A DNA stretch of 41,515 bases. Origin: Promethearchaeota archaeon (lineage in GTDB: Archaea; Asgardarchaeota; Thorarchaeia; Thorarchaeales; Thorarchaeaceae). Position 1 is the stretch's first letter. Every line of letters starts with the position of its first letter. The translations under genes and the position numbers were made by a program. Below are positions 4,020 through 12,514 of the stretch, piece by piece. The stretch lies in contig JBHLPF010000014.1 of NCBI GenBank assembly GCA_048939765.1, positions 24,722 through 66,236 of the forward strand, in the 5' to 3' direction. The notes beneath the pieces were generated by a model, which saw nothing but the letters and a program-made list of their open reading frames with translations, had not been told where the DNA came from and made no database searches.

Positions 4020-4084
4020 ACCATCTAAAAATCCTGAATCCGCTGCAAGGCTTCATTCGTACACATGTGCCGGAAGGAAAACAG

Positions 4085-5353
4085 ATGGCGAGAAATAATT
4101 CTGGGTATCATTTTGCAACATGGACGACTCTCATTGAAGAGTCTCAAATTCGTGCTCTACTCAAGTACAAGGTCGAGTATTACTTTGCTGGTGGCAAGCC
4201 GGGAATCATGCCCACTGAAATCTTTGGGAAGATTATGGAGGAGCTTGGGCAGACCTACCAAAAGGACTCCAAACAGGCTCTTGACGATCTCAATTATGGG
4301 CCCACTGGTGGCGAGCCTTGGTTCCTGAAGACTCTGGCAAAGAGACTCCATGACAAGAGGAAATTGCCAATCGATCCTGAAAATGAATGGAGCAATGTCT
4401 CAATTACAAACGGATCCCAACAAGCGCTGTATGCCTTACTTGATACTCTTATCAATCCTGGTGATGTCATCATCACGCCCTCACCTTCCTATCTTGGGTT
4501 CCTAGTCCCCGCGGTAAAGCTTGGAGCACGAGTTCTATCAATTCCTACAGATCTTGATGGTCTGATTCCAGACTATGTAGAGAAAGGAATTCATCTCTCC
4601 CAACAGAAGTTTGGAAAGAACCCCGATATGGTGTATGTCGTGCCTGATAGTGATAATCCCAAGGGCACAACTTTACCCTGGAAGAGGCGGCAGGCTCTTT
4701 TCGATTTGTGTGAGAATGAGAATATCCTCATTGTTGAAGATTCCGCCTATGCTGAGATTCAGTTCAATAGTGCCCCTCCTGCCATCAAGACGCTTGATAA
4801 GGAGAATGAGCGTGTTGCATATTTGGGAACGACTAGCAAGGAGGCCGCAGTCCTAAGGGTCGGATATTCTATTCTGCCACCCAATGTGAGAGAACAAGTT
4901 CTGAAGGACAAAGGGTATCTTGATCTCTGCACCTCAACCCTGGTCCAACGAATTCTGGACATCTATTACAGGGACCATATCGACGAGGCGATGCGACAAA
5001 ACGTTCCTAGATACAAGAAACGCGCTGAAGCCATGGCCAAAGCTATTGATTCTTCATTCCCTGCAGGTGAACGGACTAATCCAACTGGTGGGTTCTTCTT
5101 CTGGTGGCAGAGCGAGAAACCATTTGATAGTAGCAAGTTCCTGGAAGAGCATGGGATTCCCAACGATATCATCTATGTGCCCGGAGAAGCATTCTATCCA
5201 ATCACTGGTTTTAAGCTGGTCGACAATGGTAATGACATAGAACCTAGTAGACCTGAGGTCAATACTATGCGTCTTGGCTTCTCTTATGCAACAAGGACTA
5301 AGATTGGAGAGGGAATTGAGAAACTCGGTCGACTCCTCTCCGAGAATATCTAG
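4085..5353 (+). CDS. PLP-dependent aminotransferase class I/II (LysN/ARO8/MocR-like)
   Basis: FAGGKP, YGPTGG, TNGSQQAL, NPKG, EDSAY and TTSK..LRVG (PLP lysine) motifs. Start is 4067 or 4085. Confidence 0.9.
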   Translation: MARNNSGYHFATWTTLIEESQIRALLKYKVEYYFAGGKPGIMPTEIFGKIMEELGQTYQKDSKQALDDLNYGPTGGEPWFLKTLAKRLHDKRKLPIDPENEWSNVSITNGSQQALYALLDTLINPGDVIITPSPSYLGFLVPAVKLGARVLSIPTDLDGLIPDYVEKGIHLSQQKFGKNPDMVYVVPDSDNPKGTTLPWKRRQALFDLCENENILIVEDSAYAEIQFNSAPPAIKTLDKENERVAYLGTTSKEAAVLRVGYSILPPNVREQVLKDKGYLDLCTSTLVQRILDIYYRDHIDEAMRQNVPRYKKRAEAMAKAIDSSFPAGERTNPTGGFFFWWQSEKPFDSSKFLEEHGIPNDIIYVPGEAFYPITGFKLVDNGNDIEPSRPEVNTMRLGFSYATRTKIGEGIEKLGRLLSENI

Positions 5354-7059
5354 AGGATGAAGTTGACGAAGTAGGTTGCCCCATTCTTCATCTCATGAAC
5401 ATGAGCCCTAAAGTATGGTCCGAAGAGGTCTGGAAACCCTGCGTTCAACGCCCATTCAATCCAAGACCAAGCGGATTCTTGGCTTACCTTTTCCCGGGTG
5501 AATTGTCCAAAGGCCCAGCTAAGATACTTTTCAACATCAATCTTGGTCAGGAGAAGACCCTCATCTGCTCTGCCACTGTCCTTCTTTGTTTCCAGCTCAG
5601 CATGGCGGTTATTGAGCTCAGAATGGGCCTTGAAGAGAGACTTCTCAAATTCAGCAAGAGCTTGGTTCATCTCATCAAATCGGTTCTTCTTTCTGAACCG
5701 CCCCACTTTTCCTAGAGTCTTAAACATCTCAGGACGATGAATCACTGGGAAGTCCTTTTCTCTCAATACTCCTGCGAGACTCTCATTCCAAGGCGTATTG
5801 AAGTAGATTCGCGGATATCTTACAAAAAGAGGGAATGGAATGTCGAGTGCTTTTGCTGCTGGAATGACCTGAGCATAATAGGCTGTTTCACCGGGTCCCC
5901 CAACGTGAGCCACAACTGGAAGGAGAGTATCAACCGCAATCTGTCTGGAGTCAACTCTCAATGAGAGTGAAACCGATACTTCTGATAGGTCTGGTGAGTC
6001 CGCATTGATTTCGATCTCGACAACATCGCTGCAAATTGGACATTTTCCTGTCAACAGAGCTTTCGACCCGCTCAGAGAGTAGGAGAGTTCGATTCGTGCT
6101 CGATTGCAGTCTTTCCCGCCACATTCGAAGAAGAACGGAACAAAGGTTGAATCTCTCATACCTATGCCTGGTTTGAATCCCTGATTTTGTATCATTGTGG
6201 TTGCATGCGAATGTGCAGCTAAGAATCTCTCTCTGTTCTCTTTGCCTAGGAGAAGCTCTAAACCGTGGGCCATTAAGTTTCTAATCTCATCATCAGTGGC
6301 AGGTACAAGTGGAACTCCAAGATCTCCCTCCAGATTGAGTAGATGACCGATAATTCTCTGACTCCATTCGCCAAGCGTATTTGAGTTGTGATATGCCCAA
6401 CGTGTTAAGCTCAATGATTGTTCGAGCCTTTCTTCTACCAATGTTCTGGCGTGACCATCAACAGATTTGAACAAAGGTCGATAATTGTGCCGGATGCTCT
6501 CTTCAGCTTGTTCGTACCATTGTCTTCCCGGAAGAGGAATTATGCTGACTGGAGAATATTCGTATCCAGGTGGTATGGGAATACTGACAAGATTCCCCTC
6601 TTGGCCTGCATTTGGAGTTCGGATGTTTGTCAATTCAGATTGTACAATATCATAATCTGCAATGAAGAAATAGGGTGTGAGCAGTAGGTCATCACTACTC
6701 CCGAATGTCGCTATGCTTCTGGCTGTGGCAGCTTTGTTTAGAATATAGCAAGGCCCTCCCATTGCAACACTCTGATGAGCTGCTTCTACAGCACCCTCAT
6801 GAAGATGATCTATTGCCTCCTTCACTTTGGGTGTAAGAATGCCCAGTCTTCTGTTGGCATCACTCAACGCCTTTGCGGTCCGTTCCCGCCTTTCTTCTAT
6901 GTGCCAATCAGTATTCGAATATCTCTGTAAAAGGGAACGTGCCTTCGTCGCTACTGCGCCCATTGTAATCACAGGCGAGCCATAGAGATGCGTAGCAAGA
7001 TCATTCAGTTCGCCTTTCCAAATGAACTGCTGATAGACTTCCATGATGCTTGCTTTCAC
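5350..7059 (-). CDS. bshC: Bacillithiol biosynthesis cysteine-adding enzyme BshC
   Basis: AHQ..MGGPCYILNKA (cf. GQQ..GPLYT.HK), ADYD (cf. EDHD), GGPGETAYYAQ signature, C-terminal coiled coil and QE motif; directly downstream of bshA. Confidence 0.85.
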   Translation of the reverse strand: MKASIMEVYQQFIWKGELNDLATHLYGSPVITMGAVATKARSLLQRYSNTDWHIEERRERTAKALSDANRRLGILTPKVKEAIDHLHEGAVEAAHQSVAMGGPCYILNKAATARSIATFGSSDDLLLTPYFFIADYDIVQSELTNIRTPNAGQEGNLVSIPIPPGYEYSPVSIIPLPGRQWYEQAEESIRHNYRPLFKSVDGHARTLVEERLEQSLSLTRWAYHNSNTLGEWSQRIIGHLLNLEGDLGVPLVPATDDEIRNLMAHGLELLLGKENRERFLAAHSHATTMIQNQGFKPGIGMRDSTFVPFFFECGGKDCNRARIELSYSLSGSKALLTGKCPICSDVVEIEINADSPDLSEVSVSLSLRVDSRQIAVDTLLPVVAHVGGPGETAYYAQVIPAAKALDIPFPLFVRYPRIYFNTPWNESLAGVLREKDFPVIHRPEMFKTLGKVGRFRKKNRFDEMNQALAEFEKSLFKAHSELNNRHAELETKKDSGRADEGLLLTKIDVEKYLSWAFGQFTREKVSQESAWSWIEWALNAGFPDLFGPYFRAHVHEMKNGATYFVNFIL

Positions 7060-7071
7060 TCAATTGCCCCC

Positions 7072-8235
7072 TCATTTGCCAACTACTTTTTCAAACACCT
7101 TTTCATACTCTGTCACGATCTTCTCAGCGGAGAAGCTTTCTTCCACCCGTTTTCGTCCCGCTTTGCCTATTTTGGTTCGGAGGGAATCGTCATCTAGTAT
7201 TTCGATTATTGCTTGGGCGTACTCATCAATCCCAAATCCGTCAGTGACTATCCCATCCTTATTTGGACGCACAAGTTCTGGAATTCCGCCGGCCGGTGTA
7301 GTGACTACTGGAAGACTGCATGCCATCGCTTCAAGCAGGACTAGTGGCATCCCTTCAAGGGTAGAGTTTAGGAGAAAAACGTCAGCAGAGCACATGATTT
7401 CCTGCATGTTACTCTTCACACCAAGTAAATGCACATTGTCACAGAGGTCAAGAGCTTCGATCTTCCTCTCCACTTCGATTCGAGTAGGTCCATCTCCTGC
7501 AATGATAAGGCGCACCTTGGGGTAGTGGTCTGCAACGATTCTCATTATCTCTATCAGTTCAACCACTCGTTTGACCTTGCGGAAATTGGAGGCATGTAGA
7601 AGGATTTTGGCTTCCGGATCTAATTCTTTTGCTTCTTCCACCTTTCGGACTGATACACACCCACTCTCAACCATAATTCTAGTCCCGTTGAGATGTTTGA
7701 ACTGTTCAACGTCGATGAAATTCGGTATCACACTTATCTCACGTTCAATGCCAAGCGCCTCCTGAGCCTTCCTTTTCAGAAATTCAGAAACCGCTGTGAC
7801 TGCATCTGCCTTCTCAATTGTGTGTTTGACAACTGGCTGATATGCAGGGTCTAGCCCTAGCGTATGCACATCGGAACCATGAAGCGTCACAACATATGGG
7901 ACGCCAACTATCTCGCGCGCCATGTAAGCTGACATTGCATGTGGGATTGCATAATGCGAATGTATCACATCTAGCTTTGCGTCTTTCACTGTCTTGATAA
8001 TCTTGGATGTGAGTGCCATGCCATAGGGCGGTCCAATGTTCTTAAACAGAGGATAATCAAATCGGTCGACGAGATCAACATAGACCCCGCTTGTTTGCTC
8101 CCACATCAGAGAGAAGGGCCGCTGGTAGGTTATGAAGTGAATGATATGGTTTCTACCAGCCAGCTTCTGACCAAGTCTTGTGGCAAGGTATCCGGAACCG
8201 CCAACTGAGGGGAATAGATTGACTCCAATCCTCAA
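7072..8235 (-). CDS. bshA: N-acetyl-alpha-D-glucosaminyl L-malate synthase BshA (GT4)
   Basis: PSVGGSG.LAT.LG, HFITY, HSHYAIPHA, TLHGSD, SNFRKVKR and EGMPLVLLEAMA are BshA signatures. Confidence 0.93.
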   Translation of the reverse strand: MRIGVNLFPSVGGSGYLATRLGQKLAGRNHIIHFITYQRPFSLMWEQTSGVYVDLVDRFDYPLFKNIGPPYGMALTSKIIKTVKDAKLDVIHSHYAIPHAMSAYMAREIVGVPYVVTLHGSDVHTLGLDPAYQPVVKHTIEKADAVTAVSEFLKRKAQEALGIEREISVIPNFIDVEQFKHLNGTRIMVESGCVSVRKVEEAKELDPEAKILLHASNFRKVKRVVELIEIMRIVADHYPKVRLIIAGDGPTRIEVERKIEALDLCDNVHLLGVKSNMQEIMCSADVFLLNSTLEGMPLVLLEAMACSLPVVTTPAGGIPELVRPNKDGIVTDGFGIDEYAQAIIEILDDDSLRTKIGKAGRKRVEESFSAEKIVTEYEKVFEKVVGK

Positions 8236-8266
8236 CCGCTACACCTTTTGAGAACACTATAGAGCG

Positions 8267-8279
8267 CCCCTTTAAGGGG
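8267..8279. promoter_or_regulatory. Imperfect palindrome CCCCTTTAAGGGG with TATA-like core in the divergent bshA/bshB promoter region
   Basis: Seen directly, about 30-45 nt upstream of the bshA start. Confidence 0.4.
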
Positions 8280-8374
8280 AATGGTCTGGACATCAATTCG
8301 ATTTTCCATGCATCTCGCATTAATGGCTTGTGATGTGCCAAAGCTTGATTAGCAGCCGCAATCCTAGCGGCCCT

Positions 8375-9043
8375 ATGAGCAGCCTATCAAAGAACTCCAT
8401 CCTTGTGGTCGTTGCACATCCAGATGATGAGACCTTGGGAGCTGGAGGGACAATCAGGAAGCATGTGGAGCAAGGAGTTCCAGTTGATGTCCACTGCATG
8501 ACAGGCAATGACACTCGGAATGCCGAGGTCAAAGCAGCATGTGAAGTCTTGGGAGTTCGACATCTGTATCTCAGTGAGAGAGATGACTTCGCTATCGATT
8601 CCTCCTTGACAAACGAAGTGATTGGTGCGATCTTGAAGTCGCGTCCAACCATCGTGATTACACATTCCCTGGAGGACTATAACAAAAACCATAGCGAGTG
8701 TGCAAAGATTGTCGTGCATGCTGCGGAATGGGCTTCACACGCGACAGTCTTTGACAATGCGCATAGAGTCGAACGAATCTACCATATGGAGGTCAATAGT
8801 CTTCATTCAATACCCAATGTACACGTCGATATTGGGAACACCTACGAAGTAGCTCTTCAAGCCTTGCGAGAACATAAATCCCAGATTCCTAAGTCCGATC
8901 AGTATTATTTGAAGTTGTACGATGCAAGAACGCGTCTACGAGGAGTTCAAGCTGCATGCGATAGAGCAGAAGCGTTTGTAATCACTCTGCCCACCCACGC
9001 GGGTCCGTTCTACCCAAAAAACGCTGTTGATCGGCTCGTCTGA
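8375..9043 (+). CDS. bshB: PIG-L/LmbE-family deacetylase, probable BshB (GlcNAc-malate deacetylase)
   Basis: AHPDDE metal motif, MTG, R..E..AA..LG, HKSQ and RG....AEAF motifs; divergent from bshA. Likely ATG at 8375. Confidence 0.8.
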   Translation: MSSLSKNSILVVVAHPDDETLGAGGTIRKHVEQGVPVDVHCMTGNDTRNAEVKAACEVLGVRHLYLSERDDFAIDSSLTNEVIGAILKSRPTIVITHSLEDYNKNHSECAKIVVHAAEWASHATVFDNAHRVERIYHMEVNSLHSIPNVHVDIGNTYEVALQALREHKSQIPKSDQYYLKLYDARTRLRGVQAACDRAEAFVITLPTHAGPFYPKNAVDRLV

Positions 9044-9062: not shown

Positions 9063-9458
9063 TTAAGTTCCATCTGCCTTTCGTCGTCTGGCAGCAAGCA
9101 GTGCTTTGAGTTCGCCCATCATTCCACCTGGACCTGAAGGTGCCCTTGGAGGCGGGGCTTTAGCAATGGGGGCCGAAGCTATAGGTTCACCGCCTGCCGC
9201 AGCCGCTGCTGGCGAGGGACCGGCTGCAGCGACCCCGGATCTCTGTAATGCGCTGATTTTGGCATCAAACGAAGACTCTAGTTTGGATAGCTGAGTCTGG
9301 AGTTCGTAGACATCCTCCATAACCTTACTGACAGCTTCTGTGAGTTTGGTTGTGATTATACTCACGACCTCTCCGAGAGCACGCAGTTTCTCTTCTGTTG
9401 GGTCTTTCAAAGCCCATTCAAACTCATCCATAATGAAGTCTTCGCCATCTTTGCTCAT
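9063..9458 (-). CDS. Small coiled-coil / Ala-Pro-rich protein with C-terminal Ena/VASP FAB-like (WH2-related) motif; putative actin-binding protein
   Basis: Heptad-like helix at aa ~20-73, APPPRAPSGP linker and GGMMGELKALLAARRRKA C-terminus. It has its own TATA box and a GGGG RBS. The gene itself is well supported; the function is inferred. Confidence 0.6.
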   Translation of the reverse strand: MSKDGEDFIMDEFEWALKDPTEEKLRALGEVVSIITTKLTEAVSKVMEDVYELQTQLSKLESSFDAKISALQRSGVAAAGPSPAAAAAGGEPIASAPIAKAPPPRAPSGPGGMMGELKALLAARRRKADGT

Positions 9459-9527: not shown

Positions 9528-10904
9528 TCATAACTTGCCTATGACTCTCTCCACTTCTGCTTTGGCGTCTGCAAGTATCTTTTCCACCTGCTTGTCAGAT
9601 GGAGCCTCACACGTAATTCTAATGACTGGTTCAGTTCCCGATGGTCGAACAAGAACCCATCCTGCTTTGAGTGAGATGCCGATTCCATCCACTGTGATAA
9701 CTTCTGCGGAGCCTTCCATCGCTTCTGGCAGTGATTTGACGAGAGCCGTCATAACCGCGCTTTTGTTCTCATTCTGACATTTGACTTTGGCTTTTCGTAG
9801 TGGGTAGGCCGGGATTTCAGAGATTAGCTCTCCAAAGGATTTCCCTGTAGATGCCATTAATTCAAGAATCCTGCATGCAGTCAGAAATGGCTCTGGAGCA
9901 TTGTGGAATTCTGAGAAGATGAACACACCTGCCGCCTCTCCGCCGAATGCTGCTCCGGTCTCTCTCATCTTGAGAGCGACCTGAATGTCCCCCACAGGAG
10001 TTCTAATTGTCTTCCCACCAGCCTTCTCGACTGTTTCATCAACGATTTTGGAGCTGTCTACAGTCGTGACAATGGTCTTATCCATGGAGCGCTTGATTTC
10101 TTCTCGTGATAGGAGGGCGATGGTCCTATCTCCCCTAATCACCTCTCCCTTTTCCGTAACAAAGACTACTCTGTCTGCATCACCATCGTGTGCAATGCCA
10201 AGGTCTGCACCAGTATCCCTGACCATTTTGGTGAGGTCTTTCAGCGACTCCTTGTCAGGCTCAGACGCTCTTCCAGGAAAATGACCATCTGGTTGACCAT
10301 TTATTGAGATGACTTTGCAAGCTAGCCTTCTCATTAGGTACGGAGTCAATACTGAGCCGGAACCATTACCCGGGTCGACGATGATGTTGTACTCCTTGGA
10401 TTCAATGCTTTTGGAATCGACCAGTTCAAGAATGGCTGTAATGTGTTCATCTACAGCAGTTTCTGTGGTTCGTTCTTCGCCCAAGCCATTCCAATTGGCT
10501 ACTTGAAACGCCTCTTCAGTATAGATTCGCTCAATCTCTCTCTCCATCTCAGGGGTGTATCCCATACTATCTGGACTCCAGAACTTCACACCGGTGTACT
10601 CAGGAGGATTGTGGGATGCAGTTACCATGAGTCCTGCATTGTAGCCATGCTGTCTTGTGATGAACGCGAGAGTAGGAGTCGGTATCATGCCCGCCTTTAC
10701 AACATCGACACCCGTAGACATAATGCCTGCTGCAAGAGCATCCTCAATCATTGGTCCAGTTGTGCGTGCATCTCTTGCCAATACAACAGTTCCTTTCCCA
10801 AGATAGGATCCAAGGGCTTTTCCAAGTCTTAGTGCCATCGAGAGATCGAATTCAGTACCGTAGACCTTTCGAATGCCTGTAGTACCGAAGAGAGTGCGTG
10901 TCAT
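9528..10904 (-). CDS. glmM: Phosphoglucosamine mutase / phosphohexomutase (PGM/PMM family)
   Basis: LFGTTGIR, TASHNP phosphoserine loop, DGDADR metal loop, GGE and RPSGTEP motifs. Confidence 0.85.
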   Translation of the reverse strand: MTRTLFGTTGIRKVYGTEFDLSMALRLGKALGSYLGKGTVVLARDARTTGPMIEDALAAGIMSTGVDVVKAGMIPTPTLAFITRQHGYNAGLMVTASHNPPEYTGVKFWSPDSMGYTPEMEREIERIYTEEAFQVANWNGLGEERTTETAVDEHITAILELVDSKSIESKEYNIIVDPGNGSGSVLTPYLMRRLACKVISINGQPDGHFPGRASEPDKESLKDLTKMVRDTGADLGIAHDGDADRVVFVTEKGEVIRGDRTIALLSREEIKRSMDKTIVTTVDSSKIVDETVEKAGGKTIRTPVGDIQVALKMRETGAAFGGEAAGVFIFSEFHNAPEPFLTACRILELMASTGKSFGELISEIPAYPLRKAKVKCQNENKSAVMTALVKSLPEAMEGSAEVITVDGIGISLKAGWVLVRPSGTEPVIRITCEAPSDKQVEKILADAKAEVERVIGKL

Positions 10905-11965: not shown

Positions 11966-12514
11966 GTGAGCAGCTCATACGACTACCTCTTCAAGGTTGT
12001 AGTCCTCGGTGAGGGCGCTGTGGGAAAGACTGCCATCGTCACACGCTTCTCACACGGCTTCTTCAGGACCGATTACAAAACGACGATTGGATCTCAGTTC
12101 GCTGTCAAGAACATCGACATAGTCGCCCCAGATGGCGAGAATCAAGTTGTGAAGCTGCAAATCTGGGATGTCGCAGGCCAGTCTAGATTTCAGATACTGC
12201 GGCCGATGTACTATCGTGGCTCTAACGGAGGGCTTCTAGTATACGATGTGTCCAGACGCCGGACCTTCATGTTGCTGCAAGAGTGGCTAGACGAGCTTCA
12301 TAAAGCCATTCAGAAGGAGATCCCATTGGTGCTCGTGGCCAATAAGACGGACCTGCCAGATCGAGTCATAGAGCCCTCGGAGGGCAGGGAGTTTGCCGAT
12401 GCTCATGGCATGCCCTATGTGGAGAGCTCAGCAAAGACTGGCGAGGGAGTCGTTGACATTTTTGAAGAGCTGGGCACTGTGCTTGTCAGAATGCGTCAGA
12501 ATGTAAACCGCTAG
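11966..12514 (+). CDS. Rab-like small GTPase (eukaryotic signature protein)
   Basis: G1 GEGAVGKT, G2 TTIG, G3 WDVAGQ, G4 NKTD, G5 SAK. RabF-like motifs IGSQF, KLQIW, YYRGS and LVYDVS. GGAGG RBS. Confidence 0.95.
   Translation: MSSSYDYLFKVVVLGEGAVGKTAIVTRFSHGFFRTDYKTTIGSQFAVKNIDIVAPDGENQVVKLQIWDVAGQSRFQILRPMYYRGSNGGLLVYDVSRRRTFMLLQEWLDELHKAIQKEIPLVLVANKTDLPDRVIEPSEGREFADAHGMPYVESSAKTGEGVVDIFEELGTVLVRMRQNVNR

Follow-up and report, generated by a model that had tools for sequence, protein, structure and literature searches.

Does an Asgard archaeon carry a pathway to bacillithiol, the protective sugar-cysteine thiol that, to our knowledge, has so far been measured only in bacteria? The question is raised by a 41,515-nt stretch of DNA from a Promethearchaeota archaeon of the Thorarchaeaceae (hereafter the window; G000:C83:24722-66236, contig JBHLPF010000014.1), whose genome assembly comprises 3.37 Mb in 108 contigs at 88.5% completeness and 4.3% contamination. 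An earlier note on this DNA had read three clustered genes, bshA, bshC and a PIG-L deacetylase, as a complete BshA/B/C set serving bacillithiol or a variant as redox buffer. In our assessment the genes are best explained, with a probability of about 0.7, by a functional pathway whose three steps lead to bacillithiol or a close analogue, long inherited in Asgard archaea and equipped with an archaeal form of BshC. The same estimate covers the view that Asgard archaea have held these genes for a long time, passing them on mostly by vertical descent, and did not recently import them from bacteria. What the analysis shows is the identity of the genes, the fold, and their conservation, linkage and distribution; all catalytic activities are predicted, as are zinc binding, co-transcription and the role in physiology.

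Asgard bacillithiol is a published prediction, and the genes themselves are no discovery: 39 archaeal BshA and 39 archaeal BshC InterPro hits, mostly from Asgard, have been reported (Rawat & Maupin-Furlow 2020, section 13; PMC7278568), and NCBI annotation already names these proteins BshA and BshC. In a 2025 survey no archaeon had the complete set of three (PMC12719100); the survey covered RefSeq only, and the Asgard homologues discussed here come from metagenome-assembled genomes (MAGs). With the core claim already covered by literature and annotation, the added value lies in variant features and distribution; what is new is how all three enzymes vary in Thorarchaeota (hereafter Thor) and how the Asgard cassettes split three ways. 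Asgard archaea are the closest known prokaryotic relatives of eukaryotes, and the locus offers a concrete three-gene target for identifying their thiol.

Three clustered genes of the bacillithiol families

The three genes lie together between positions 5350 and 9043 of the window and belong to the same three families, with the same implied reaction order, as the bacterial bacillithiol enzymes BshA, BshB1 (or BshB2) and BshC of Bacillus subtilis, Bacillus anthracis and Staphylococcus aureus (structures 5D00, 2IXD/6P2T and 4WBD). The clustering of the full set distinguishes the window from the bacterial systems. The first, bshA (7072-8235, minus strand; 387 aa, TTG start), encodes a family 4 glycosyltransferase (GT4) homologous to N-acetylglucosaminyl L-malate synthase. 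It scores 377.1 bits against TIGR03999 (cut-off 273.7), about 100 bits above the equivalog threshold, and is the only one of the three proteins to reach a curated equivalog level. Full-length alignment with B. subtilis BshA (5D00) gives 255 bits, comparison with the B. anthracis and S. aureus enzymes 249 and 218 bits, and the N-terminal, acceptor-side motifs align closely with those of the B. subtilis protein. As the equivalog-level match implies, BshA would move N-acetylglucosamine (GlcNAc) from UDP-GlcNAc onto L-malate, and the supply genes for UDP-GlcNAc are present in the genome, with GlmM in the window and GlmU (500 bits) elsewhere.

The second step would fall to the product of the divergent gene on the plus strand. 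Its open reading frame (ORF) spans 8330-9043 (237 aa), with the ATG at 8375 (222 aa) as the most likely start because all homologues align from there. The earlier reading of this gene as a PIG-L deacetylase is borne out by a score of 74 bits against PF02585 (cut-off 28.2). Among solved structures the protein is closest to B. cereus BC1534 (2IXD, 58.9 bits), followed by B. subtilis BshB1 (6P2T, 51.3 bits), both of them BshB enzymes. It retains the AHPDD motif and the final His of D-x-H-x-x-H, and in the alignment the predicted zinc-ligand positions appear to be kept. Family membership, these relatives and the conserved adjacency described below together suggest a PIG-L zinc hydrolase that strips the N-acetyl group and yields glucosamine-malate (GlcN-malate).

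The third protein (5350-7059, minus strand; 569 aa, GTG start) is the most divergent of the set and is referred to here as BshC-like, a putative cysteine-adding enzyme of archaeal type. It passes the PF10079 threshold (55.5 bits, cut-off 27) and combines a Rossmann core like that of class I aminoacyl-tRNA synthetases with a C-terminal helical domain and a four-cysteine insert. In single-sequence search against the PDB it returned nothing at E 0.01, and a profile built from archaeal sequences alone retrieved B. subtilis BshC (4WBD) as the only PDB match (E 4.6e-22). An AlphaFold2 (AF2) model (mean predicted local distance difference test score, pLDDT, 95.5; predicted template-modelling score, pTM, 0.94) matches 4WBD in Foldseek at E 4.5e-19 with TM-scores of 0.68/0.72. 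In a VIA comparison it reaches Z 38.4 with a root-mean-square deviation of 2.9 Å over 469 of 540 residues, spanning model residues 2-567. The next matches are far behind, with class I lysyl-tRNA synthetase 1IRX at Z 23.4, other class I synthetases at ~12 and cysteinyl-tRNA synthetase and MshC at ~11. Judged by this model, the BshC-like protein has the BshC fold, in which a Rossmann core with CP inserts is joined to a helical domain at the C terminus.

The BshC family is marked by the motifs GQQ...GGP.Y...K and GPGE..Y, and in 59 sequences, archaeal and canonical together, nine residues (Q96, G102, K109, D137, E142, R322, G388, E391 and Y394) never vary. The insert, C313-x4-C318 ... C340-x2-C343, reads FFECGGKDC...GKCPIC; its four cysteines are invariant in 30 of 30 Thor loci, it is a constant feature specific to the archaeal group, and B. 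subtilis BshC does not have it. Searched alone against the PDB, the insert gave no significant sequence match (best E 0.41); it is probably a zinc knuckle. Fold, family residues and linkage are consistent with an archaeal-type BshC that would add cysteine to the free amine left by the deacetylase. Linkage has precedent as evidence for this family, as BshC was first identified through its co-occurrence and co-localisation with bshA (PMC5790435).

Mycothiol biosynthesis in Actinobacteria (MshA/MshB/MshC/MshD) follows the same logic, in which a GT4 transferase, a PIG-L deacetylase and a cysteine ligase resembling class I aminoacyl-tRNA synthetases act on glucosamine. The scores separate the two systems: the window BshA obtains only 59.9 bits against the MshA model TIGR03449 versus 377 bits for BshA, the deacetylase obtains 27.6 bits against the MshB model, and the BshC-like model matches MshC at Z 10.8 versus 38.4 for BshC. 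No MshD step is evident.

An archaeal BshC clade and its distribution in Asgard genomes

A search of 1.84 billion representative proteins with the BshC-like sequence returned 46 proteins at E <= 1e-30, followed by a gap to E ~1e-11 and weaker matches. For the complete proteins among the 46, the alignments are full-length with identities of 28-56%, and the group carries the labels Thor, Hermod, Hodarchaeales, Kariarchaeum/Heimdall, Ranarchaeia, 'Promethearchaeota' and, once, 'Bathyarchaeota'. The BshC-like proteins nearest to that of the window (54-92% identical) belong almost without exception to MAGs that bear the name Thorarchaeota, which, with the Ras-family GTPase in the window, points to an Asgard host. 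The far group beyond the gap is canonical BshC, a status assigned to its ten representatives by TIGR03998 score (386-535 bits in canonical representatives versus 46-76 bits in members of the archaeal clade). In a 78-row maximum-likelihood tree, 45 archaeal sequences fall on one side of a branch with a Shimodaira-Hasegawa-like approximate likelihood ratio (SH-aLRT) support of 100 and a combined length of ~2.7, and within that side sequences group by Asgard family. As placed by this tree, the archaeal BshC-like clade is deep and separate from canonical BshC, to which the proteins are ~16-20% identical. Phylogeny had been proposed earlier as the way to tell an Asgard clade from recent horizontal transfer, and for BshC it came out on the side of the clade. 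The putative last-step enzyme of the window, with its predicted cysteine-adding role, belongs to this archaea-only branch of the family.

Conservation of the neighbourhood was followed by tblastn of the window proteins on individual loci, and distribution was surveyed in 400 Asgard genomes grouped into families designated by f-numbers. A single-contig Thor genome of 3.16 Mb and a further contig of 1.55 Mb both preserve the ten-gene order orf347-PyrF-aminotransferase-BshC-BshA-PIG-L-orf131-GlmM-hydrolase-Ras without a break, and 29 of 30 Thor loci retain the core aminotransferase-BshC-BshA(-PIG-L). Among the 400 genomes, the BshC-like protein is present in 195, and BshA is found at the equivalog level in 146 (152 with a match at E <= 1e-60). 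The two proteins track each other in f1 (BshA in 76/85 genomes, BshC-like in 79/85), f8 (30/31 for both), f10 (12/12 for both) and f14 (16/19 and 17/19). Their genes adjoin each other in f1, f8, f9, f10, f14 and f32, and in f1, f9, f10, f14 and f32 the PIG-L gene is adjacent as well, in differing order and orientation. This three-gene adjacency in five Asgard families argues for one pathway and is the best evidence that the three proteins function jointly.

Sequence divergence is uneven within the cluster. Across the Thor loci (L005-L034), identity to the window protein is 54-91% for BshC-like, compared with 68-97% for BshA and 69-97% for the aminotransferase; by this measure BshC-like diverges much faster than these two neighbours within Thorarchaeota. 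One BshA that carries the label 'candidate division Zixibacteria' shares 80% identity with the BshA of Asgard family f13 and nests among f13 BshA in the tree, and 'Bathyarchaeota' is the label on the non-Thor BshC-like cluster closest to the window protein. Both labels (P0332 and P0271) may stem from mis-binned or mis-named MAGs.

Family f13 itself departs from this pattern, with BshA in 11 of 12 genomes and the archaeal BshC-like protein in none of the 12. A BshC-PIG-L-BshA operon in one of its genomes, G083 (G083:C90:62215-65554; L054/L043), follows the same three-step logic in an Asgard host, but the BshC of the family is of bacterial type (375-386 bits, cut-off 265.8, in 5/5 genomes checked: G082, G083, G085, G087 and G091), in contrast to the archaeal type of the window. 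The nearest non-Asgard relatives of f13 BshA are from Bacteroidota/Ignavibacteria (45-49% identity), and the bacterial sequences in the BshA tree are of Bacteroidota/Ignavibacteria type only, so that the tree gives no verdict on Asgard monophyly relative to all bacteria. From these affinities the f13 operon looks like a second, separate and later acquisition within Asgard.

A third arrangement is found in the Loki-type families f21 and f22 (L049:6619-12370 and L051:6767-11085), where a member of the same archaeal BshC clade with an adjacent PIG-L gene lies in a GT2-PIG-L-BshC-like-Amidohydro_2 cassette, to which DUF711 is added in the f21 locus. A GT2 (glycosyltransferase family 2) protein stands here in place of BshA, which was not found in any of the 14 f21 or 135 f22 genomes, and the predicted product is probably a different glycoside. 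Asgard archaea thus hold three forms of the gene set, namely the archaeal type with BshA, the GT2-swapped type and the bacterial-type operon, a distribution that indicates that the pathway was remodelled several times.

Bacillithiol or a related product

Several observations weigh against the pathway proposed for the window's genome, beginning with the enzymes themselves. The completeness claimed in the earlier note holds at the level of Pfam families, fold and synteny and fails, except for BshA, at the level of curated equivalogs. The deacetylase reaches 85.4 bits against the BshB1 model TIGR04001 and 56.4 bits against the BshB2 model, far below and below their cut-offs of 182.5 and 195.25, and BshC-like reaches 60.7 bits against TIGR03998, far below the 265.8 required. 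Compared with canonical BshB1, the Thor deacetylase is without one loop, and in Thor only the first His of D-x-H-x-x-H is replaced by Asn (EDYNKNH versus EDRHPDH in 2IXD). The window BshA has EGMP at residues 294-297 where BshA enzymes have ESFG, with the Glu kept. In the BshC-like protein, which is set apart from the bacterial enzyme also by its separate deep clade and extra CX4C...CX2C insert, the canonical GQQ has become GHQ in the archaeal consensus and AHQ in the window. With the deacetylase and BshC-like below the BshB1 and BshC thresholds and with these lineage-specific changes, the genes do not fix the exact product.

The genomic context of the pathway raises further objections. In Firmicutes, Bdr/YpdA and the bacilliredoxins co-occur with BshABC, whereas the 88.5%-complete genome studied here yielded neither Bdr/YpdA (the best of three thioredoxin reductase (TrxR)-like genes scores 78.7 bits against TIGR04018, cut-off 339.9) nor BrxC or BrxA/B (no match to YtxJ TIGR04019 or to PF06491). 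The BshC-like protein also occurs without BshA in f11 (20/22 versus 0/22 genomes), f21 (8/14 versus 0/14) and f22 (19/135 versus 0/135), which means that it is not confined to malate glycosides. It should also be noted that nobody has yet reconstituted the reaction of BshC, not even that of the Bacillus enzyme (PMC5790435), and that no measurement of a thiol is on record for any Asgard archaeon (PMC7278568). The first of these points makes the archaeal clade a fresh handle on the open biochemistry of BshC. Of the earlier proposal, bacillithiol or a variant stands as the best reading of the genes, carried by the five-family adjacency and the predicted BshC fold, while the role of redox buffer finds no partner among the recycling genes sought. 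A CoADR/Nox-like oxidoreductase (326 bits, below its cut-off of 579) is a possible candidate reductase. Gamma-glutamylcysteine ligase was not found in the genome, and so no rival dedicated thiol pathway is seen.

The altered motifs and the missing Bdr/Brx genes leave room for a product that may be either bacillithiol or a variant. A modified analogue, built on another hexosamine (for example the C4 epimer, from UDP-GalNAc), another acceptor or another amino acid attached by the divergent BshC, is the main rival, possible but clearly less likely than the pathway set out above. In S. aureus BshA the ESFG motif (280-283) hydrogen-bonds GlcNAc, with contacts made by E and F, and the choice of Gly or Pro at position four of the motif is reported to switch a related capsule polymerase of family GT4 between Glc and Gal specificity (PMC10361700). 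EGMP is invariant in 29 of 29 Thor BshA sequences and f14 has EGAP, with ESFG retained in f8, f9, f10 and f13; the change is a lead towards altered sugar specificity, drawn by analogy to another enzyme. The His-to-Asn change of the deacetylase, the low identity (~20%) of BshC-like to its canonical counterparts, its GHQ/AHQ substitution and its insert fit an analogue as well, and the related cassettes that swap BshA for GT2 mark the scaffold as evolutionarily flexible. Set against this are the wide margin by which BshA clears its equivalog cut-off and the close resemblance of its acceptor-side motifs to those of B. subtilis BshA. It is intriguing to hypothesize that Thorarchaeota and f14 make a new bacillithiol analogue, such as a galactosamine-based or otherwise altered glycoside, specified by EGMP/EGAP and finished by a zinc-ribbon archaeal BshC; in this specific form the idea is doubtful, somewhat more so than an analogue in general. 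If it were true, the archaeal BshC might act alone in vitro, unlike the Bacillus enzyme, and reveal the missing BshC chemistry. Since members of the archaeal BshC clade occur in Thor, Heimdall/Hodarchaeales, Kariarchaeum and Loki-type lineages, a Cys-hexosamine thiol would then also be an ancestral Asgard trait predating the use of glutathione in eukaryotes.

It is improbable that the cluster makes no thiol at all, its product being a solute or glycan precursor of GlcN-malate type and BshC-like serving in some other ligase role. Such a role would agree with BshC chemistry being unproven in any organism (PMC5790435), with the f11 genes that stand beside an aminotransferase and ArgRS without BshA, and with the absence of thiol-recycling genes among those found in the window's genome, to which can be added that YpdA (Bdr) was not found in the five f13 genomes checked either. 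It sits poorly with the tight linkage of BshC to BshA and the deacetylase in five families, with the conserved invariant residues of the BshC family, and with the phenotype of B. subtilis, which on loss of BshC makes no bacillithiol and accumulates GlcN-malate (PMC5790435). Bacterial contamination, mis-assembly or a very recent bacterial transfer into one genome has the least to recommend it and is very improbable indeed, even though bacillithiol is otherwise a bacterial trait and the window BshA is about equally similar to solved Bacillus BshA and to the BshA of other Asgard families (36-44% identity). GC content is even across the window (0.45-0.50), and the cluster is flanked by an archaeal GlmM and a Ras GTPase. 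The earlier note had named bacterial mis-assembly as one of the findings that would undo its claim; that origin is rejected, as is contamination, by the even GC, by a gene order shared among 29 of 30 Thor loci, including the single-contig genome, and seen on the 1.55-Mb contig, and by the wide presence in Asgard. For BshC, recent transfer is rejected too on the strength of synteny, the deep archaeal clade and occurrence in 79 of 85 genomes of the family and 195 of 400 of the phylum.

Intergenic sequences and neighbouring genes

The co-orientation of bshA and bshC at a distance of 12 nt, reported earlier, is confirmed: the spacer gggggcaattga (7060-7071, minus strand) is exactly 12 nt long as read from the sequence, from the TGA of bshA to the GTG of bshC. 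It contains a G-run that is a possible ribosome-binding site, and this would favour co-transcription of the two genes. Two elements can be read from the sequence of the divergent intergenic region between bshA and the PIG-L gene (8236-8374): the inverted repeat CCCCTT-T-AAGGGG at 8267-8279 and, 22-27 nt upstream of the bshA TTG, the TATA-like CTATAG at 8257-8262. They suggest that the bshA-bshC transcript is nearly leaderless and that an operator may be shared.

Beyond the PIG-L gene lie an ORF of 131 aa (9063-9458, minus strand) and, one gene away as noted earlier, the phosphoglucosamine mutase GlmM (9528-10904, minus strand; 458 aa), which is of archaeal type (538 bits against TIGR03990, cut-off 439). 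The further suggestion that GlmM is linked to the pathway is weak. It adjoins the cluster in the Thor family only, where the whole ten-gene neighbourhood is syntenic, and is absent from the clusters of other families; GlmM is therefore treated as a neighbour with no demonstrated part in the pathway, and its candidacy as an integral member is rejected. The 131-aa ORF has a conserved, coiled-coil-like N-terminal region of ~72 aa followed by an Ala/Pro-rich tail; family scans matched no family, and no link to thiol genes was seen outside Thor.

On the other side of the cluster, a class I/II pyridoxal phosphate (PLP) aminotransferase (4067-5353, plus strand; PF00155) is convergent with bshC, with a 4-nt overlap. 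Its top NCBIfam matches, the MocR/PdxR-like AAT domain, GntC and MppQ, all score below cut-off. The aminotransferase-bshC pairing is kept in 29 of 30 Thor loci and recurs, at 52% identity, in f11 beside the BshC-like gene that occurs there without BshA; it could reflect retained synteny or a functional link to the BshC step. Farther along the window, the Ras-family small GTPase (11966-12514, plus strand; 182 aa; PF00071, E 4.5e-49) occupies the same place in the neighbourhood in other Thor genomes, at 79-82% identity.

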